A DNA stretch of 50,008 nt from a phage. The notes beneath the pieces are model-generated. The model ran no database searches. It saw only the letters and a list, made by a program, of their open reading frames with translations, and was not told the DNA's origin. The DNA lies in sequence record PX418923.1. One strand, 5' to 3'. Numbering within the stretch: the stretch's first letter is position 1; each line of letters begins with the position of its first letter. A program made the translations under genes and the position numbers. This document shows positions 3,027 to 40,547 of the stretch, piece by piece.

Positions 3027-4875
3027 CATTTTTGACATTGAAGCTGATGGCTTGAAGCCTACTAAGATTCATTGTCTTTCTGTCATGAAGAATGGTAAAC
3101 TCTTTTCAACCACTGACTACGATAAGATGAGAGCGTTCTTTAGAAACGCTAAGATTATTGGTGGTCACAATATTTACAGGTATGACATTCCAAATATTGA
3201 GAGATTGTTAGGTATCAAAGTAAAGTGTAAACTTGTTGATACGCTACCACTCTCTTGGTATTTGGAGCCAGCTAGGAAGAGGCATGGCCTAGCTGAATGG
3301 GGTGAAGAGTTTGGTGTTCCTAAGCCGAAAGTCGATGATTGGGAAAACCTAGCCGTAGAGGAATATATACATCGATGTGAAGAAGACGTAAAGATTAACA
3401 CCAAACTGTGGGAACGCCAATGGAAACAACTCTTCAAGTTGTATGGTGAGCCAGATAAAGTTTGGAAGTTCATTGACTACATCATGTTCAAAATGGATTG
3501 TGCTGCTGAACAAGAGCGTAGTCGATGGAAGTTAGATGTAGTGCATTGTAAGACCACTTTAAAGAAACTAGAAAAGTTAAAAGAAGAAAAAGTAGAAGAG
3601 CTTAGATTGGCTATGCCTCCCGTGCCAGTAATGGCAAGTAAGGAAAAGCCTAAGAAGATGTATCTAAAGAATAAGCCAAACACTTTAAGCGAACAGGGGA
3701 AAGCTTGGGTTGCGTTGTTGAAAGAGCAGGGGCTGCCCGAAGATTACGAAGGAGTAGTTGAGTATATTAAGGATTGGAAGGAACCTAATCCTGGCTCACA
3801 CGAGCAAATTAAGTCTTGGTTGTACAGCCTAGGTTGGGTGCCAGAGACTTTTGCATATAAAAGAAACAAGGAAACTGGGGAAGTTAAGAAGATTGAACAA
3901 GTACAGCAAGATAAAACTCTTGGTCCTGGCTTGTGTGCTAGCGTTAAGAAGCTCTATGGTAAAGAGCCAAAGCTAGAAATTCTTGATGGACTCTCGATTC
4001 TAACTCACCGTATCTCCGTTCTAAACGGGTTCTTAAACAACGTGGATGATGAAGGTTATGTCCAAGCCAAAGTGCAAGGACTCACCAACACGTTGCGATT
4101 TAAGCATGAGGTGGTGGTCAACCTTCCGGGTGTTGACAAGCCTTATGGCGCTGATATACGTGGTTGCCTGGTTGCTCCTGAAGGTTATGAGCTGGTTGGT
4201 AGTGATATGAGCAGCTTGGAGGACAGATGTAAGCAACATTACATGTGGCCTTATGACCCTGAGTATGTCAAGGAGATGATGACTCCAGACTTTGATCCTC
4301 ACATTGACTTAGCGGTGTTTGCCAAAGCTCTAACTAAGCAACAAGCTGACGCTCATAAACGAGGGGAAGAAAACCACAAAGGCGTAAGGAAAACCTACAA
4401 GGCAGTTAACTACGCCGCCGTATATGGAGCTGGTGGTCCACGTGTGGCCATCACTGCTGGGGTAACCACGGATGAGGGGTACAAACTGGTAGATGCGTAT
4501 TGGCAACGTAACTGGTCAGTCAAACGTATTGCTGAAGACCAGATAGTTAAGGTGTGCAATGGAATGAAGTGGTTGTTCAATCCAGTTAGTGGATTCTGGT
4601 ACAGCTTACGTCATGAAAAAGATAGGTTCTCAACACTAAACCAAGGTACGGGAGTTTACTGTTTCGATACATGGATATGCAATTTTAGAAAGAAGCGACC
4701 TCAACTAACTGGTCAAATGCACGATGAAGTTATTTTGTGCATTAAGAAGGGTTACAGAAAGCAAGCTGAAAAGCTTCTTCGTGACGCAATTGAAGAGACA
4801 AACAAACAACTTAAATTAAACAGAGAGTTAGATATCTCCGTACAATTCGGTGATAGATACTCAGACATTCACTAA
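3019..4875 (+). CDS. Family A DNA polymerase (T7 gp5-like)
   Basis: N-terminus MIDIFDIEADG...KIHC resembles T7 DNA pol exonuclease motif I; polymerase motifs DMSSLEDR (A), RKTYKAVNYAAVYGAG (B), HDEV (C); TTG start directly after in-frame stop. Confidence 0.9.
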   Translation: MIDIFDIEADGLKPTKIHCLSVMKNGKLFSTTDYDKMRAFFRNAKIIGGHNIYRYDIPNIERLLGIKVKCKLVDTLPLSWYLEPARKRHGLAEWGEEFGVPKPKVDDWENLAVEEYIHRCEEDVKINTKLWERQWKQLFKLYGEPDKVWKFIDYIMFKMDCAAEQERSRWKLDVVHCKTTLKKLEKLKEEKVEELRLAMPPVPVMASKEKPKKMYLKNKPNTLSEQGKAWVALLKEQGLPEDYEGVVEYIKDWKEPNPGSHEQIKSWLYSLGWVPETFAYKRNKETGEVKKIEQVQQDKTLGPGLCASVKKLYGKEPKLEILDGLSILTHRISVLNGFLNNVDDEGYVQAKVQGLTNTLRFKHEVVVNLPGVDKPYGADIRGCLVAPEGYELVGSDMSSLEDRCKQHYMWPYDPEYVKEMMTPDFDPHIDLAVFAKALTKQQADAHKRGEENHKGVRKTYKAVNYAAVYGAGGPRVAITAGVTTDEGYKLVDAYWQRNWSVKRIAEDQIVKVCNGMKWLFNPVSGFWYSLRHEKDRFSTLNQGTGVYCFDTWICNFRKKRPQLTGQMHDEVILCIKKGYRKQAEKLLRDAIEETNKQLKLNRELDISVQFGDRYSDIH

Positions 4876-5940: not shown

Positions 5941-6244
5941 GAAAATTGTTAATGTTGGTGACTTCGTAGAGGTATTGGATAGCAGCTTTGTTGAACATGG
6001 CGTCAAGAAGGGTGACTTCATTTACATTGCTGGTGACAGTATCGTAGCTGTTAGTGAGAAAGACCCTTACCAACTTCGTCGGCTGTTCGTAGCTGCATTC
6101 ATGGAAGATGGTCACATCTTGGCAGATCGTAAACCTTTCCTTATTGATGGTAAGCGTTGTAAGCCTGTTTCTGAAGCTAAACAACAGAAGTTTGCAGAGA
6201 AGATGAAACAAGATTTCGGTGAAAAGAATGAAGCCTCTAATTGA
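5933..6244 (+). CDS. Hypothetical protein
   Basis: ORF-track ORF 5903-6244; internal ATG at 5933 has GAGG RBS. Confidence 0.45.
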   Translation: MSKKIVNVGDFVEVLDSSFVEHGVKKGDFIYIAGDSIVAVSEKDPYQLRRLFVAAFMEDGHILADRKPFLIDGKRCKPVSEAKQQKFAEKMKQDFGEKNEASN

Positions 6245-11085: not shown

Positions 11086-11900
11086 CAAAATAGGGCGGCC
11101 TTTTCAAGAGATTGAAATTGAATAACTAACCTAAAAACGGGGAAGGGTTACTGACCTAATCCCGTGCTAACTCGCTATGAGATGTGTAACGACTATGAAA
11201 ATTAAAGACAAAAAAGAACTAATTAAGCTCATTTCCTTCATCACCATGGGTGATGGGTCTGTCTATAGGAACCGTGGTGCAGGCAACTGTCTGTTCTCCT
11301 TTTCCCAAACTGAAGACCACAAAGACTTCGTAGATTATGTGGGTTCCATCATCTCCAATATCACGTCTTACAAGGTTGTGGTAGATGAGAGAGAGGCACC
11401 AAGGAAATCTCTGCTTAAGTTGTGCACTCCTGTACATCCATACTTCAACAAACTGCGTGACCGGATTTATGTAGACTCCTACAAATCCATTGATCCACAT
11501 GCGTTGAAGATGTTAGACTTTGAAGCGTTAGCTATTTTGTATATGTGCGACGGTTGTTTGGGTAAGAGTATGAATTCGAACGGCTCTGTTGCTCGAACAG
11601 TGACACTTAACTTGTGCAGACTCTCCTACGGAGACCAGCTTCTACTGAAGAAGGCTCTTAAAGAAAAGTTAGACCTGGAATGGAACGTCGTTAAAACTGG
11701 TGGTAAATACCTGACTTTGCGTTTGCGGATGAAAGATTTCGACAAATTCATGCATGGTATCGAGCCATATATGCAAGAAAGCTTCCGATATAAACTTGAA
11801 ATTCGTACGGTTAGCCCCGAGAAATCGGGTGGTGAGATAGTCTGATCTATGTGGCAACACATAGGAGCCTGGCAGAAATGTCCAGGACATGAACGATATG
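11086..11900 (+). mobile_element. Group I intron in nrdB carrying a LAGLIDADG homing endonuclease ORF
   Basis: 5' exon ends in U (11085), intron ends in G (11900); the splice restores frame (codon T+TC=Phe) giving a 322-aa NrdB; intron contains P3-P7-like AAACGGGGAA...AAUCCCGUGCUAA and 3' GAGAUAGUCUG plus GNRA hairpin. Confidence 0.6.
11177..11845 (+). CDS. LAGLIDADG homing endonuclease (intron-encoded)
   Basis: Two LAGLIDADG-type motifs (LISFITMGDGSV and LAILYMCDGCLG). Confidence 0.8.
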   Translation: MRCVTTMKIKDKKELIKLISFITMGDGSVYRNRGAGNCLFSFSQTEDHKDFVDYVGSIISNITSYKVVVDEREAPRKSLLKLCTPVHPYFNKLRDRIYVDSYKSIDPHALKMLDFEALAILYMCDGCLGKSMNSNGSVARTVTLNLCRLSYGDQLLLKKALKEKLDLEWNVVKTGGKYLTLRLRMKDFDKFMHGIEPYMQESFRYKLEIRTVSPEKSGGEIV

Positions 11901-12553: not shown

Positions 12554-14241
12554 GTACAATTTACGAGAAACTTTCCCAAGAGAGGAAAGAACTTCAAGCA
12601 CAAGGTCTTGTACCTGAATGGATGACTACTGGTGGATGGCAACTCTTTAAAGAAAAATATTTGTGGGAGGCGAGAGGACTTAAAGACACATACGAGCGTA
12701 TCGCTAAAACTGCTGCACAACATACTGACGACCCTGACAAGTGGGCCGCTAAGTTTTTTGATGTTCTTTGGCGCGGCTGGCTTGCTGCCTCTACTCCTGT
12801 TCTTAGTAACATGGGTACAATCAAAGGTATGCCAGTAAGCTGCTCTGGTCAATATATTGAGGACAGCATTGATGGATTCTATTCAGCCTACCACGAAACG
12901 GCTATGCTTACAAAGAATGGCTTCGGCACGTCGGGCTATCTCGGCGATATCAGACCTCGTGGAAGCATCATCAGTACCGGAGGAAAAGCTTCAGGTACTC
13001 TGCCAATCTTTAAGCATTTTGTCCAAGACATGCGAGATGTTGCACAAGGAACTTCTCGGAGAGGAGCATGGGCAGGGTATCTGCCTATTGACCACGGAGA
13101 CTTCTACGAAATCGTAGACTATCTAAAGAACTTCCCAGACGACCTTAACATTGGCTGGAACCTAAGCCAAGCGTTTATCGACCGTCTAGAAGCAGGTGAT
13201 GTAGACGCTGTACAACGCTTCCAGAGAGCAATGTATGTTAAGGCTATCACTGGTAAGGGCTATTTCTTTAAGCCTGACACAGTGAACGCTATGAACCCAC
13301 AGGTGTATAAAGACAGGGGGCTTGAAGTTAAAGCCTCTAACCTTTGCACTGAGATTACATTGTTTAGTGACGAAGACCATACCTTCACTTGTGTGCTCTC
13401 GTCTATGAATCTGGAGAAGTATGATGAATGGAAAAACACAGATGCAGTGTTCGTGTCTACAGTGTTTCTTGACTGCGTTGCACAAGAGTTTATCCGACTC
13501 GCCAAGGGACAAAAGGGTTTTGAAAAGAGTGTTAGATTCACTGAGGCAAGCCGGGCTCTTGGGCTTGGAGCCCTTGGTTTCCACACCTATCTGCAAGCTA
13601 AGATGATCCCACTTGAGTCTTTCGAGGCTCATATGACCAACCTAGAAATCTTCCAACATCTACATGAGGAGGCCACTCGTGCTACAAAGTGGATGGCGAA
13701 AGCTTGGGGCGAGCCTGAGTGGTGTAAAGGTTATGGTGTTAGGAACACTCATCTACTTTCTATTGCCCCTAACACATCTTCTGCTCTTATCTGTGGGGGC
13801 GTCTCCCAAGGTATTGAACCGGTGGTTGCAAATCTGTACAATCAACCAACCTCCGCAGGGGAAATTTACAGAGTCAATCCTGTCTTTCTTAACCTGGCAA
13901 AGAAACGTGTTGGGTGGACTGACGAACTCGTTAAAGAACTGACTGAAACTGAAGGTAGCGTACAACATCTTGATTGGCTTAGTCCGAAAGAGAAAGCTGT
14001 ATTCAAGACGGCTTATGAGGTGGATCAAGCAGCTCTGGTTAGATTAGCAGCAGCTCGACAGCCTTACATCTGTCAAGCACAGTCACTTAATTTGTTCTTT
14101 GACGCTGATGAAAGTGAAACCTACATTGCTCAAATCCATAAAGAAGCTCTACTCAATCCACAAATCAAGTCCCTCTACTACATGCGAACCAAAGCAGGAG
14201 TGCAGGCAAGTAAGGGGGAGTGTGAAGCGTGCAGTGGATAA
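12547..14241 (+). CDS. nrdA: Ribonucleotide reductase large subunit NrdA (class I, no ATP cone)
   Basis: ASTPVLSNMGT, NLCTEITLF active-site region, C-terminal CEACSG; TTG/GTG start overlapping nrdB stop. Confidence 0.85.
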   Translation: MVSTIYEKLSQERKELQAQGLVPEWMTTGGWQLFKEKYLWEARGLKDTYERIAKTAAQHTDDPDKWAAKFFDVLWRGWLAASTPVLSNMGTIKGMPVSCSGQYIEDSIDGFYSAYHETAMLTKNGFGTSGYLGDIRPRGSIISTGGKASGTLPIFKHFVQDMRDVAQGTSRRGAWAGYLPIDHGDFYEIVDYLKNFPDDLNIGWNLSQAFIDRLEAGDVDAVQRFQRAMYVKAITGKGYFFKPDTVNAMNPQVYKDRGLEVKASNLCTEITLFSDEDHTFTCVLSSMNLEKYDEWKNTDAVFVSTVFLDCVAQEFIRLAKGQKGFEKSVRFTEASRALGLGALGFHTYLQAKMIPLESFEAHMTNLEIFQHLHEEATRATKWMAKAWGEPEWCKGYGVRNTHLLSIAPNTSSALICGGVSQGIEPVVANLYNQPTSAGEIYRVNPVFLNLAKKRVGWTDELVKELTETEGSVQHLDWLSPKEKAVFKTAYEVDQAALVRLAAARQPYICQAQSLNLFFDADESETYIAQIHKEALLNPQIKSLYYMRTKAGVQASKGECEACSG

Positions 14242-39922: not shown

Positions 39923-40207
39923 ATGATTAGGCTCAACATGGACTTTCTTCTGCTCACTAGAGCAGCACAACAAGTTAAAAACTTTTGTAAACACACTGGA
40001 CTTGACGAAGGCGTCATTATGGAGACGCTCAGAATGCGTTGCGAAAGTCAATGGATTAAGCGGGAAGAAGATGGGAAGACTGTCACCTATGATGGTGAAG
40101 GTTGGATAGTTGATGACGATCCACACTTCATTGACATCGACAAGGCTTTAATCTGGGACAATACGCCAGAGGGCCACAACTATTGGTCTACTATCAGTCT
40201 TTATTAA
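39923..40207 (+). CDS. Hypothetical protein
   Basis: GGAGG RBS. Confidence 0.5.
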   Translation: MIRLNMDFLLLTRAAQQVKNFCKHTGLDEGVIMETLRMRCESQWIKREEDGKTVTYDGEGWIVDDDPHFIDIDKALIWDNTPEGHNYWSTISLY

Positions 40208-40215
40208 ATGAATGA

Positions 40216-40298
40216 GCGGGAGTAGCCCCGTCAGTCTTCTAAACTGATAAGGGTAATTGGAGCTGAAAATGTGAGTTCGAATCTCACCTCCCGCGCCA
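40216..40298 (+). tRNA. tRNA-like element with canonical T-arm, acceptor stem and encoded CCA but no recognisable D-arm
   Basis: 5' GCGGGAG pairs with 3' CTCCCGC; T-arm GTGAG-TTCGAAT-CTCAC; discriminator G and CCA at 40296-40298; internal hairpin TCAGT-CTTCTAA-ACTGA could be an anticodon arm (TCT). Confidence 0.4.
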
Positions 40299-40319
40299 CC
40301 CTACAAAATGGAGAACAGA

Positions 40320-40547
40320 ATGAGCGACTTCAAGAACTGGATAGAGGATGTAGGTATCGGCAAGTGCGGTAACGGATATTTTGTCCGAATTGATGGATGT
40401 GACATCTTTGAAAGTGTCAACCAGTACGGATGCAAGGCCCGCAGAAGCCTATCTATCGCAGAGTGTCTTGGTAGTAAGGAAGAAGCTAAAGCATCTGCCA
40501 TCGAATGGCTGGAGAAACAGCTAGCAAAGGTAAAGGCCACCGACTAA
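40320..40547 (+). CDS. Hypothetical protein
   Basis: Second ATG preceded by GGAGAA; the same AAATGGAGAACA..ATG cassette recurs at 40557. Confidence 0.45.
   Translation: MSDFKNWIEDVGIGKCGNGYFVRIDGCDIFESVNQYGCKARRSLSIAECLGSKEEAKASAIEWLEKQLAKVKATD

Follow-up and report, generated by a model that had tools for sequence, protein, structure and literature searches.

The DNA analysed here (the window) is the whole 50,008-nt stretch of phage sequence record PX418923.1, and the element under study lies at positions 40216-40298 on its + strand. We propose that this element is a working elongator transfer RNA (tRNA) for arginine, tRNA-Arg(UCU), with a rewired core, and named it 'split-D' tRNA. The probability of this reading was put at roughly 60%, because the anatomy of the element, conservation of its family, covariation, replacement of a canonical gene at the same locus, identity elements and codon demand argue for it. 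The element is not a chance sequence, as its Rfam score, its fold z-score of −3.24 and its recurrence with compensatory changes in unrelated phage contigs indicate. The expression, processing, charging, ribosome use and three-dimensional shape of the split-D tRNA are predictions from these data, as is any reason given for its rewiring.

Read directly from the sequence, the element runs GCGGGAG UAGCCCCG UCAGU CUUCUAA ACUGA UAAGGGUAAUUGGAGCUGAAAAU GUGAG UUCGAAU CUCAC CUCCCGC G CCA. Its parts are listed below.

40216-40222, + strand: 5′ strand of the acceptor stem, GCGGGAG (positions 1-7), pairing perfectly with 40288-40294
40223-40229, + strand: connector U8 A9 G10 C11 C12 C13 C14, the 5′ strand of the split D stem (covariation, RNAalifold)
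40230-40248, + strand: anticodon arm, with a 6-bp stem (15-20/28-33, including G15.U33) and the 7-nt loop CUUCUAA
40238-40240, + strand: anticodon UCU, with U33 and A37 (canonical numbering) present
40249-40250, + strand: AA, a 2-nt bulge where the anticodon stem meets the lower half of the split D stem
40251-40253, + strand: GGG, first 3′ segment of the split D stem, partner of C12-C14
40254-40261, + strand: 8-nt bulge UAAUUGGA, the D-loop equivalent, with G44 and G45 corresponding to G18 and G19, and A46 to A20
40262-40265, + strand: G47 C48 U49 G50, second 3′ segment of the split D stem, partners of C11, G10, A9 and U8 (covariation, RNAalifold)
40266-40270, + strand: linker AAAAU to the T stem, at the place where the variable loop would be
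40271-40287, + strand: T arm, with the 5-bp stem GUGAG/CUCAC and the loop UUCGAAU
40288-40298, + strand: 3′ strand of the acceptor stem, CUCCCGC, followed by discriminator G73 (40295) and encoded CCA (40296-40298)

Much of this anatomy had been recognised in the original prediction, which was made from the window alone. The perfect 7-bp acceptor stem, the 8 nt followed by a 5-bp stem with a 7-nt loop and the anticodon TCT, the 23-nt extra region before the T arm, and the T arm itself (5-bp stem, TTCGAAT loop) with its encoded CCA could all be read from the sequence as described. The further statement that no D-arm is recognisable was correct for the D hairpin: the anticodon stem begins just 8 nt after the acceptor stem, and no hairpin of 3-4 bp (10-13/22-25) with a loop of 8-11 nt was found. 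It did not hold for the D stem and D loop, as equivalents of both are present: the D-stem pairs (10-48, 11-47, 12-38, 13-37 and 14-36) occur in rewired order and enclose the anticodon arm, and the loop corresponds to the U39-A46 bulge with its GG. The 22-23 nt located 3′ of the anticodon stem form no hairpin of their own and pair back to positions 8-14.

On the predicted fold, the canonical D stem (10-25, 11-24, 12-23, 13-22) survives, with the whole anticodon arm as its hairpin loop. The D-loop-like UAAUUGGA (cf. AAUAGGAUA in phage O4) would then lie in a bulge flanked by the equivalents of positions 23 and 24, and the molecule would be a three-way junction without a linker on its 5′ side and with AAAAU on its 3′ side. 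The composite arm of ~13 bp would preserve the anticodon-to-CCA distance, and the GG of the bulge would dock on the T loop; the family conserves both this GG and the TTCGAAT loop. The AAAAU linker probably has a tertiary role.

The split D stem, in which positions 9-14 pair with 36-38 and 47-49 and the anticodon arm lies inside, was supported by comparative data. The pairs proposed were A9-U49, G10-C48 and Y11-R47, and C12-G38, C13-G37 and C14-G36. A set of 12 sequences was collected by hand and aligned with MAFFT without fitting to the structure. In this alignment, 98.6% of the cells were paired, compared to a mean of 79.2% after shuffling, and 15 of the 24 pairs changed on both sides; none of 500 shuffles matched either the observed paired fraction or the covariation score, and pairing was only 33-44% once the 3′ partners were slid. 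RNAalifold, applied to an unfitted MAFFT alignment, recovered pairs 9-49, 10-48, 11-47, 12-38, 13-37 and 14-36 and added 8-50 (U8.G50) to the proposal. In a larger alignment of 58 sequences (53 distinct), 96.7% of the cells of the 53 distinct sequences were paired, versus no more than 44% with the 3′ partners slid by 1-3 columns; this alignment, like the wider alignments in general, was fitted to the model, which inflates its pair counts, including the following:

Pair 10-48: GC 37, AU 6
Pair 11-47: CG 30, UA 17, UG 4
Pair 13-37: CG 35, AU 9, GC 8, UA 1
Pair 14-36: CG 37, GC 9, AU 2

Y11 co-varied with the purine preceding CUG as C-G, U-A or U-G, and C-A was never encountered. By eye, CCC/GGG was replaced by CAG/CUG together with A10-U48 in one relative (L269 14011-14090; labels beginning with L denote the sequences to which coordinates refer), by CAC/GUG in Pseudomonas poae phage Boevelstad, and by CG/CG in another relative (L251 2312-2391). 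The GGG segment, which co-changes with positions 12-14 in these relatives, is invariant in the Arg(TCT) core family. All seven acceptor-stem pairs covaried in the family alignments, including that of the 53 distinct sequences, as did four of the five T-stem pairs, with the canonical T-loop consensus kept. The anticodon stem comprises 5 bp, or 6 with G15.U33, and 6/6 of its pairs covaried in the model-fitted alignment. Paired T-stem changes also distinguish phage PA11 from the window. The three classical stems are free to vary yet remain complementary, and the connector and 3′ region are almost unvarying: the TAGYCCC connector is nearly constant across the Arg(TCT) family, the 2-nt bulge of the Arg family is conserved as A followed by A or C, and the linker GAAAAT/GAAAAC hardly differs between the Arg and Ile classes.

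The common plan of the family consists of a 7-bp acceptor stem, U8 A9 G10 Y11 C12 C13 C14, a 6-bp anticodon stem with the loop CUUCUAA, 2 unpaired nt, GGG, the bulge UAAU(U)GGA, R C U G, AAAAU, the T arm, the 3′ strand of the acceptor stem and N73. The energy of the proposed fold was −28.0 kcal/mol, compared to −30.5 kcal/mol for the single-sequence minimum. The choice between folds was based on covariation, since covariation decides here and energy alone does not. The minimum-energy register (G10.U39, C11-G38, C12-G37, C13-G36, with the T arm disrupted) was rejected because L269 14011-14090 and Boevelstad fit solely 12-38, 13-37 and 14-36 with 10-48 and 11-47. Two further arrangements were discarded. 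A D-arm-like hairpin in the 3′ region (AACU/AGUU), which can be drawn for some Ile members, is impossible in L260 1341-1421 and in the Arg members. An intron or permuted gene was also rejected: removal of no single segment yields a cloverleaf, and both termini are in normal order.

Standard tools gave divergent results. The element scored 44.3 bits with Rfam model RF00005 (gathering score 29, E = 2.9e-6 for the window), and this was the sole Rfam family above its gathering score in the window. In the Rfam alignment, the D arm was deleted (13 -> 3 nt) and a 20-nt insert was placed in the variable region. The split-D forms of phages IME180, HHBS10_2 and Ty scored 41.7-44.5 bits with the same model, compared to ~70 bits for canonical alleles. 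ARAGORN made no tRNA calls in the window in bacterial, mitochondrial or relaxed bacterial mode; a single 53-nt call obtained in relaxed mitochondrial mode was judged spurious. A mitochondrial-type D-armless tRNA was likewise not recognised, ARAGORN -mt being silent at its default threshold. No further tRNA-like gene was found in the window with ARAGORN or Rfam. The original prediction was to be dropped if tRNA predictors were silent and no small RNA was detected; of the predictors, ARAGORN was silent and Infernal/Rfam was not, and the silence of tRNA predictors would have been a misleading criterion here.

The closest relatives of the window are Pseudomonas aeruginosa phages of the genus Paundecimvirus (PA11, O4, TC6; ~50 kb), classified in Zobellviridae, which we take to be a family of lytic podoviruses. 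The element is flanked by two open reading frames (ORFs), and a homing endonuclease gene occurs at the same place in some relatives:

39923-40207, + strand: upstream 94-aa ORF, a homologue of O4 gp76 that marks the common locus, ending 8 nt before the element
40308-40547, + strand: downstream 79-aa ORF from the ORF list, beginning 10 nt past CCA
1575-2027 of L293 (PA11) and 2122-2574 of L003 (Ty): HNH gene, with a Pfam HNH_3 match, annotated as similar to T5 F-TflI

In phages O4, DMTU_1 and K4, the gp76-like ORF directly precedes a canonical 77-nt tRNA-Arg(TCT), called by ARAGORN and scoring ~70 bits with Rfam; phage PPAT also has the O4-type canonical gene. The split-D form occupies this locus in the window, IME180, HHBS10_2, Ty, PA11, TC6, PSA11, FBPa8 and PP21. 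No phage was found with both alleles: the split-D search missed the canonical-type phages, and the window has no second tRNA. The two alleles are identical in the anticodon loop CUUCUAA, the T-loop consensus and GCCA, and their acceptor, anticodon and T stems are unrelated in sequence, each being internally complementary. Judged by sequence, it looks like one gene has been exchanged for another with the same job. The split-D gene was annotated as a tRNA in none of the 10 isolate records, nor in the unannotated record of a 635-kb uncultured phage.

The surroundings of the element are mosaic. Window positions 40310-40547, which O4 does not share, match orf67 of phage D3 with 96% identity (also PMG1 and IME307); this D3-like ORF places a recombination junction within a few bases of the tRNA 3′ end. 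IME180 and HHBS10_2 part from the window sequence at the same junction. In PA11, TC6, PSA11 and Ty, the HNH homing endonuclease gene lies directly 5′ of the split-D tRNA, and the annotated ORF extends 27 nt into the tRNA, ending at the UAA of the anticodon loop. This gene is missing from the window (just 8 nt, 40208-40215, separate ORF and tRNA), IME180, HHBS10_2, FBPa8 and PP21, and it was present in none of the phages with the canonical allele. The T4 homing endonuclease SegB drives inheritance of the T4 tRNA region (PMC2330249), and by analogy the HNH enzyme may drive the spread of the split-D allele.

Pattern scans revealed the split-D design in phage contigs of 7-142 kb that have no flanking sequence in common with the window. 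Short or loosely gapped patterns (TAAGGGTAATTGGA and GTAGYCCC..GGGTAAT) gave at least 120 matches, mostly by chance, and were replaced by a two-gap signature of 22.5 bases. The signature scan identified 40 further metagenome contigs with the design, and about 50 distinct metagenomic split-D sequences were obtained. Among 50,697 phage records, the only carriers beyond Paundecimvirus were Boevelstad and the 635-kb uncultured phage; the canonical tRNA-Arg(UCU) of O4 (gt01), by comparison, was matched by 566 phage records. The Arg and Ile(GAT) signatures each gave no matches in 185,579 bacterial and archaeal species, represented by one genome per species; genome scans used exact patterns, which divergent copies may escape. 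Within the limits of these scans, only phages and metagenomes have the design.

A model built on the Arg(TCT) set (R1) also matched other genes of the same arrays, with scores of 36-78 bits. A broader model (R2) gave 75 matches (60 distinct, from phages and metagenomes) with at least 44 bits, and all canonical tRNAs scored no more than 32.5 bits. At this level R2 detected the anticodons TCT, TCG, GAT and TAT and no other class, the rest scoring 32.5 bits or less.

Boevelstad (L294 2999-3081) carries a more divergent split-D tRNA-Arg(UCU). Its gene is located ~300 nt 3′ of an annotated RNA ligase gene, and a promoter-like TTGACA-17 nt-TAGGAT motif, read by eye, lies just 5′ of it. A TCT relative at L269 12164-12247 scored 39 bits with R1 and 48 with R2; its 3′ spacer, GUCGUUAAA, is longer, its linker to the T arm is shortened, and a canonical Arg(tct) gene follows it. 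This relative could represent an intermediate form or another variant of the split-D design.

The bases that distinguish the anticodon classes are those expected of aminoacylated tRNAs:

TCT (Arg), 33 members: base after the bulge GG, A 32, T 1; N73, A 18, T 9, G 5, C 1; N37, A 33
TCG (Arg), 10 members: base after the bulge GG, A 7, with 3 unscored by the pattern; N73, A 5, T 5; N37, A 8, G 2
GAT (Ile), 13 members: base after the bulge GG, T 13; N73, A 13; N37, A 13
TAT (Ile), 4 members: base after the bulge GG, T 4; N73, A 4; N37, A 4

The base 3′ of the bulge GG was thus A in 39 of the 40 scorable Arg members and T in 17/17 Ile members. N73 was A in every Ile member (17), whereas 42 of the 43 Arg members had A, G or U there. 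These counts agree with the bacterial identity sets, in which A20 is the main determinant for Arg, along with C35, U/G36 and A/G/U73, and U20, U21 and A73, among others, mark Ile (PMC9976931). The element itself carries A after the bulge GG (the A20 equivalent), C35, U36 and G73. Conservation of A20 or U20 and A73 class by class would be expected of RNAs that need charging by ArgRS or IleRS, and the class-specific base after GG identifies the bulge as the D-loop equivalent. The suggestion of an unusual phage tRNA in the original prediction is supported by these Arg identity features together with the same-locus replacement, the Rfam score and the covarying family in arrays. The element could also be a tRNA-derived regulatory RNA, another suggestion of the original prediction.

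Split-D tRNA-Ile(GAU) genes were located at L136 6975-7055, L008 12513-12594, L262 8815-8894, L260 1260-1336, L260 1341-1421 and L295 7909-7987, and tRNA-Ile(UAU) genes at L263 2514-2594, L260 1543-1631, L251 4102-4190 and L289 2731-2820. The Ile genes have GGU in the bulge and A73, and the UAU class has an extra small hairpin in the 3′ linker. ARAGORN missed or mis-called them, e.g., as 'Thr tgt', or as 'Ile gat' of 90-94 nt.

Like other tRNA genes, most split-D genes are packed into dense arrays, with 5-12 nt between them and the adjacent tRNAs, and in many arrays the split-D gene is the sole one nearby with its anticodon. In six sequences (L260, L271, L269, L268, L251 and L295), the split-D TCT gene is directly followed by a canonical tct gene, often within 6-20 nt. 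At five loci (L260, L271, L269, L261 and L007), the split-D TCG gene is followed by a canonical acg gene at 7-8 nt:

L260: split-D 6007-6085, canonical 6093-6167
L271: split-D 3761-3839, canonical 3847-3919
L269: split-D 14011-14090, canonical 14098-14171
L261: split-D 11330-11409, canonical 11416-11491
L007: split-D 13839-13918

Such canonical twins disfavour simple substitution and are the main ground for not regarding the two forms as simply equivalent; they suggest that split-D tRNAs contribute something beyond what normal tRNAs do.

Also present in these metagenomic arrays are tRNAs of 85-93 nt whose long variable arms form hairpins. They serve Asn, Met, Gly, Val, Thr, Pro and His, amino acids whose tRNAs normally have short variable loops. 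They often adjoin a normal-length gene with an identical anticodon, and are a second kind of structural diversification in these phages:

L260: 2711-2796, 5200-5284
L263: 1944-2032, 2118-2205
L251: 6485-6574
L136: 6878-6966
L261: 7871-7963, 10525-10610, 10617-10702, 10828-10915

Codon usage provides a demand for the tRNA. The GC-content of the phage is 44.6%, and in 63 crude ORF calls AGA accounted for 177 of the 759 Arg codons (23%, ~12 per 1000) and AGG for 18%. P. aeruginosa is GC-rich, and both codons are rare in it.

As a working tRNA, the element would be co-transcribed with the small early ORFs, excised, charged by the host ArgRS and used to decode AGA and perhaps AGG. Its acceptor stem and T arm would form a normal 7+5-bp branch for EF-Tu, RNase P and the CCA enzyme. 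The second branch would be one long composite arm, in which positions 8-14 pair with 47-50 and 36-38 and the anticodon arm sits at the helix end. The GG of UAAUUGGA would dock on the T loop, and the following A would serve as the ArgRS determinant A20. Several results weigh against this reading: the lack of an ARAGORN call in every standard mode, the higher energy of the proposed fold relative to the single-sequence minimum, the pair counts inflated by model fitting, and the canonical twins beside split-D TCT and TCG genes. Moreover, as the element has neither a canonical D hairpin nor a variable loop, its compatibility with the ribosome and ArgRS rests on the inferred fold.

A more ambitious version, which we regard as possible and put forward tentatively, is that the split-D form is a new natural tRNA architecture, charged and decoding, whose rewired domain was selected for enzyme escape or altered bending. 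The rewired D/anticodon domain could hide the tRNA from enzymes of the host or of rival phages that read normal D-arm and anticodon-stem geometry. Alternatively, the flexible bulge that separates the equivalents of positions 23 and 24, the D-stem site at which the classical Hirsh suppressor alters decoding, could change tRNA bending on the ribosome and widen wobble reading. Escape from enzymes that recognise normal D/anticodon geometry is an attractive reason for the rewiring, by analogy with phage tRNAs that evade immunity.

The same analogy could be extended to an RNA that does not decode. In this unlikely case the element would be a decoy or anti-defence RNA, whose Arg anticodon arm and normal acceptor/T branch soak up a host tRNA nuclease or modifying toxin, or survive it if the enzyme requires normal D-arm and anticodon-stem geometry; in a milder variant, compatible with a working tRNA, a decoding molecule would evade such enzymes through its rewired core. 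There are documented cases of phage tRNAs overcoming defences that cleave tRNAs (PMC10264068, PMC11464382, PMC11555353), with OLD acting by removal of the anticodon arm (PMC12445682), the arrays keep split-D genes beside canonical Arg(tct) or Arg(acg), suggesting non-equivalence, and the ligase gene of Boevelstad lies close to its split-D gene. However, the split-D gene is the sole tRNA-like gene in Paundecimvirus and stands at the site of the canonical one in its place, class-by-class conservation of A20/U20 and A73 would be superfluous in a pure decoy, and no defence system targeting tRNA-Arg or tRNA-Ile through the D arm was identified in this analysis. Use of the element as a processing signal, at which RNase P and 3′ enzymes cut an early transcript between the 94-aa and 79-aa ORFs with decoding secondary or absent, would suit its tight placement between these ORFs and a scan that found no promoter-like or terminator-like site adjoining it. 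It is very improbable, as it leaves unexplained the conserved anticodon loop, the class-specific A20/U20 and A73 and the restriction to four anticodons; in the arrays the neighbours are tRNAs, not ORFs, and the Boevelstad gene has the promoter-like motif of its own.

The HNH gene that reads into the element in four phages, together with the SegB precedent, could also point to a scrambled, non-functional tRNA gene carried along as a passenger, with an altered sequence immune to cleavage by the endonuclease. We consider this explanation highly improbable: five of the nine element-bearing members of the genus have no HNH gene, and covariation disfavours it, as the family is conserved in unrelated phages with compensatory changes in every helix, and the T-stem differences between PA11 and the window are paired. 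An attP-like 3′ fragment of a host tRNA gene, left behind by integration or serving it, also raised in the original prediction, has in its favour only the tRNA-like 3′ half, and its probability is close to nil. The element is full length with both acceptor strands, its signature, scanned as an exact pattern, had no match in the genomes of 185,579 species, and the same gene occurs in tRNA arrays of unrelated phages. The original prediction reported no integrase, with no integrase search made in this analysis, and the closest relatives belong to Zobellviridae, which we take to be lytic.

Comparison with known systems sets the split-D tRNA apart. Relative to O4 gt01, it shares the locus in sister phages, the CUUCUAA loop, the T-loop consensus, G73-CCA, the 7-bp acceptor stem and the 5-bp T stem. 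It differs in having no D hairpin: in its D stem, a single 5′ strand pairs with two 3′ segments that lie apart from each other. The anticodon arm is found where a D loop would be expected, and the D-loop-like GG lies in a 3′-side bulge. Further differences are the 6-bp anticodon stem, the lack of a conventional variable loop and the unrelated stem sequences.

Metazoan mitochondrial D-armless tRNAs (tRNA-Ser(AGY), nematode tRNAs) also have no D hairpin, a short 5′ connector and a lengthened anticodon branch, and the anticodon-to-CCA distance is assumed to be preserved in both kinds. In the mitochondrial forms, an unpaired connector replaces the D arm and elbow nucleotides are lost (PMC4013460, PMC7609411, PMC9427863). 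In contrast, positions 9-14 of the split-D connector are paired, with covariation at 10, 11, 13 and 14, the GG and TTCGAAT elbow partners and a fully canonical acceptor/T branch are kept, and the carrier is a bacterial phage, not an organelle. Allo-tRNAs, including the (8/4) tRNA-Ser and tRNA-His of bacteria and phages, depart from the usual form in their acceptor/T split (8/4, 9/3), with the D hairpin and a long V arm retained (Mukai et al., PMC5389517). Like the split-D tRNAs they are non-canonical and were discovered in metagenomes, and some of them belong to tRNA clusters of phages and escape standard finders or are scored wrongly; unlike them, the split-D tRNAs have a 7/5 acceptor/T branch, and the D/anticodon domain is rewired instead.

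Immunity-evading phage tRNAs include T5 tRNA-Lys, which acts against PARIS (PMC11464382), T5 tRNA-Tyr, which acts against the retron effector PtuAB (PMC11555353), and tRNAs whose anticodon-loop variants escape tRNA-targeting immunity (PMC10264068). They resemble the split-D tRNAs in being encoded by phages and in differing from host tRNAs at sites a nuclease could recognise; redundant copies beside canonical genes are also seen in the split-D arrays. Their changes are point substitutions in the anticodon loop or stem with the cloverleaf kept, whereas the split-D form changes the whole core topology. The architecture was not described in the full-text literature searched, subscription-only literature being outside the search, and a 2020 review of natural non-canonical tRNAs mentions neither phages nor a split-D design.

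The cloverleaf is among the most conserved shapes in biology, and its known exceptions are mostly degenerate mitochondrial tRNAs. The split-D tRNA is a phage-specific, covarying design in which every functional module is kept and the order of connections is changed. It also exposes a blind spot of annotation, since these genes are not labelled as tRNAs in phage records. Cultured P. aeruginosa phages carry either allele at one site, which makes clean allele swaps possible, and with Boevelstad there is a second system in culture, which may be connected with tRNA repair. A functional split-D tRNA would mean that bacterial ArgRS, IleRS, RNase P, EF-Tu and the ribosome tolerate a core with other wiring, and the design would offer a new scaffold for tRNA engineering and orthogonal translation. 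If the reading as a new architecture is true, an L-shaped adaptor can be built in a way that is neither the cloverleaf nor one of the reduced mitochondrial forms, and that has so far been found in phages alone, for Arg (UCU, UCG) and Ile (GAU, UAU).

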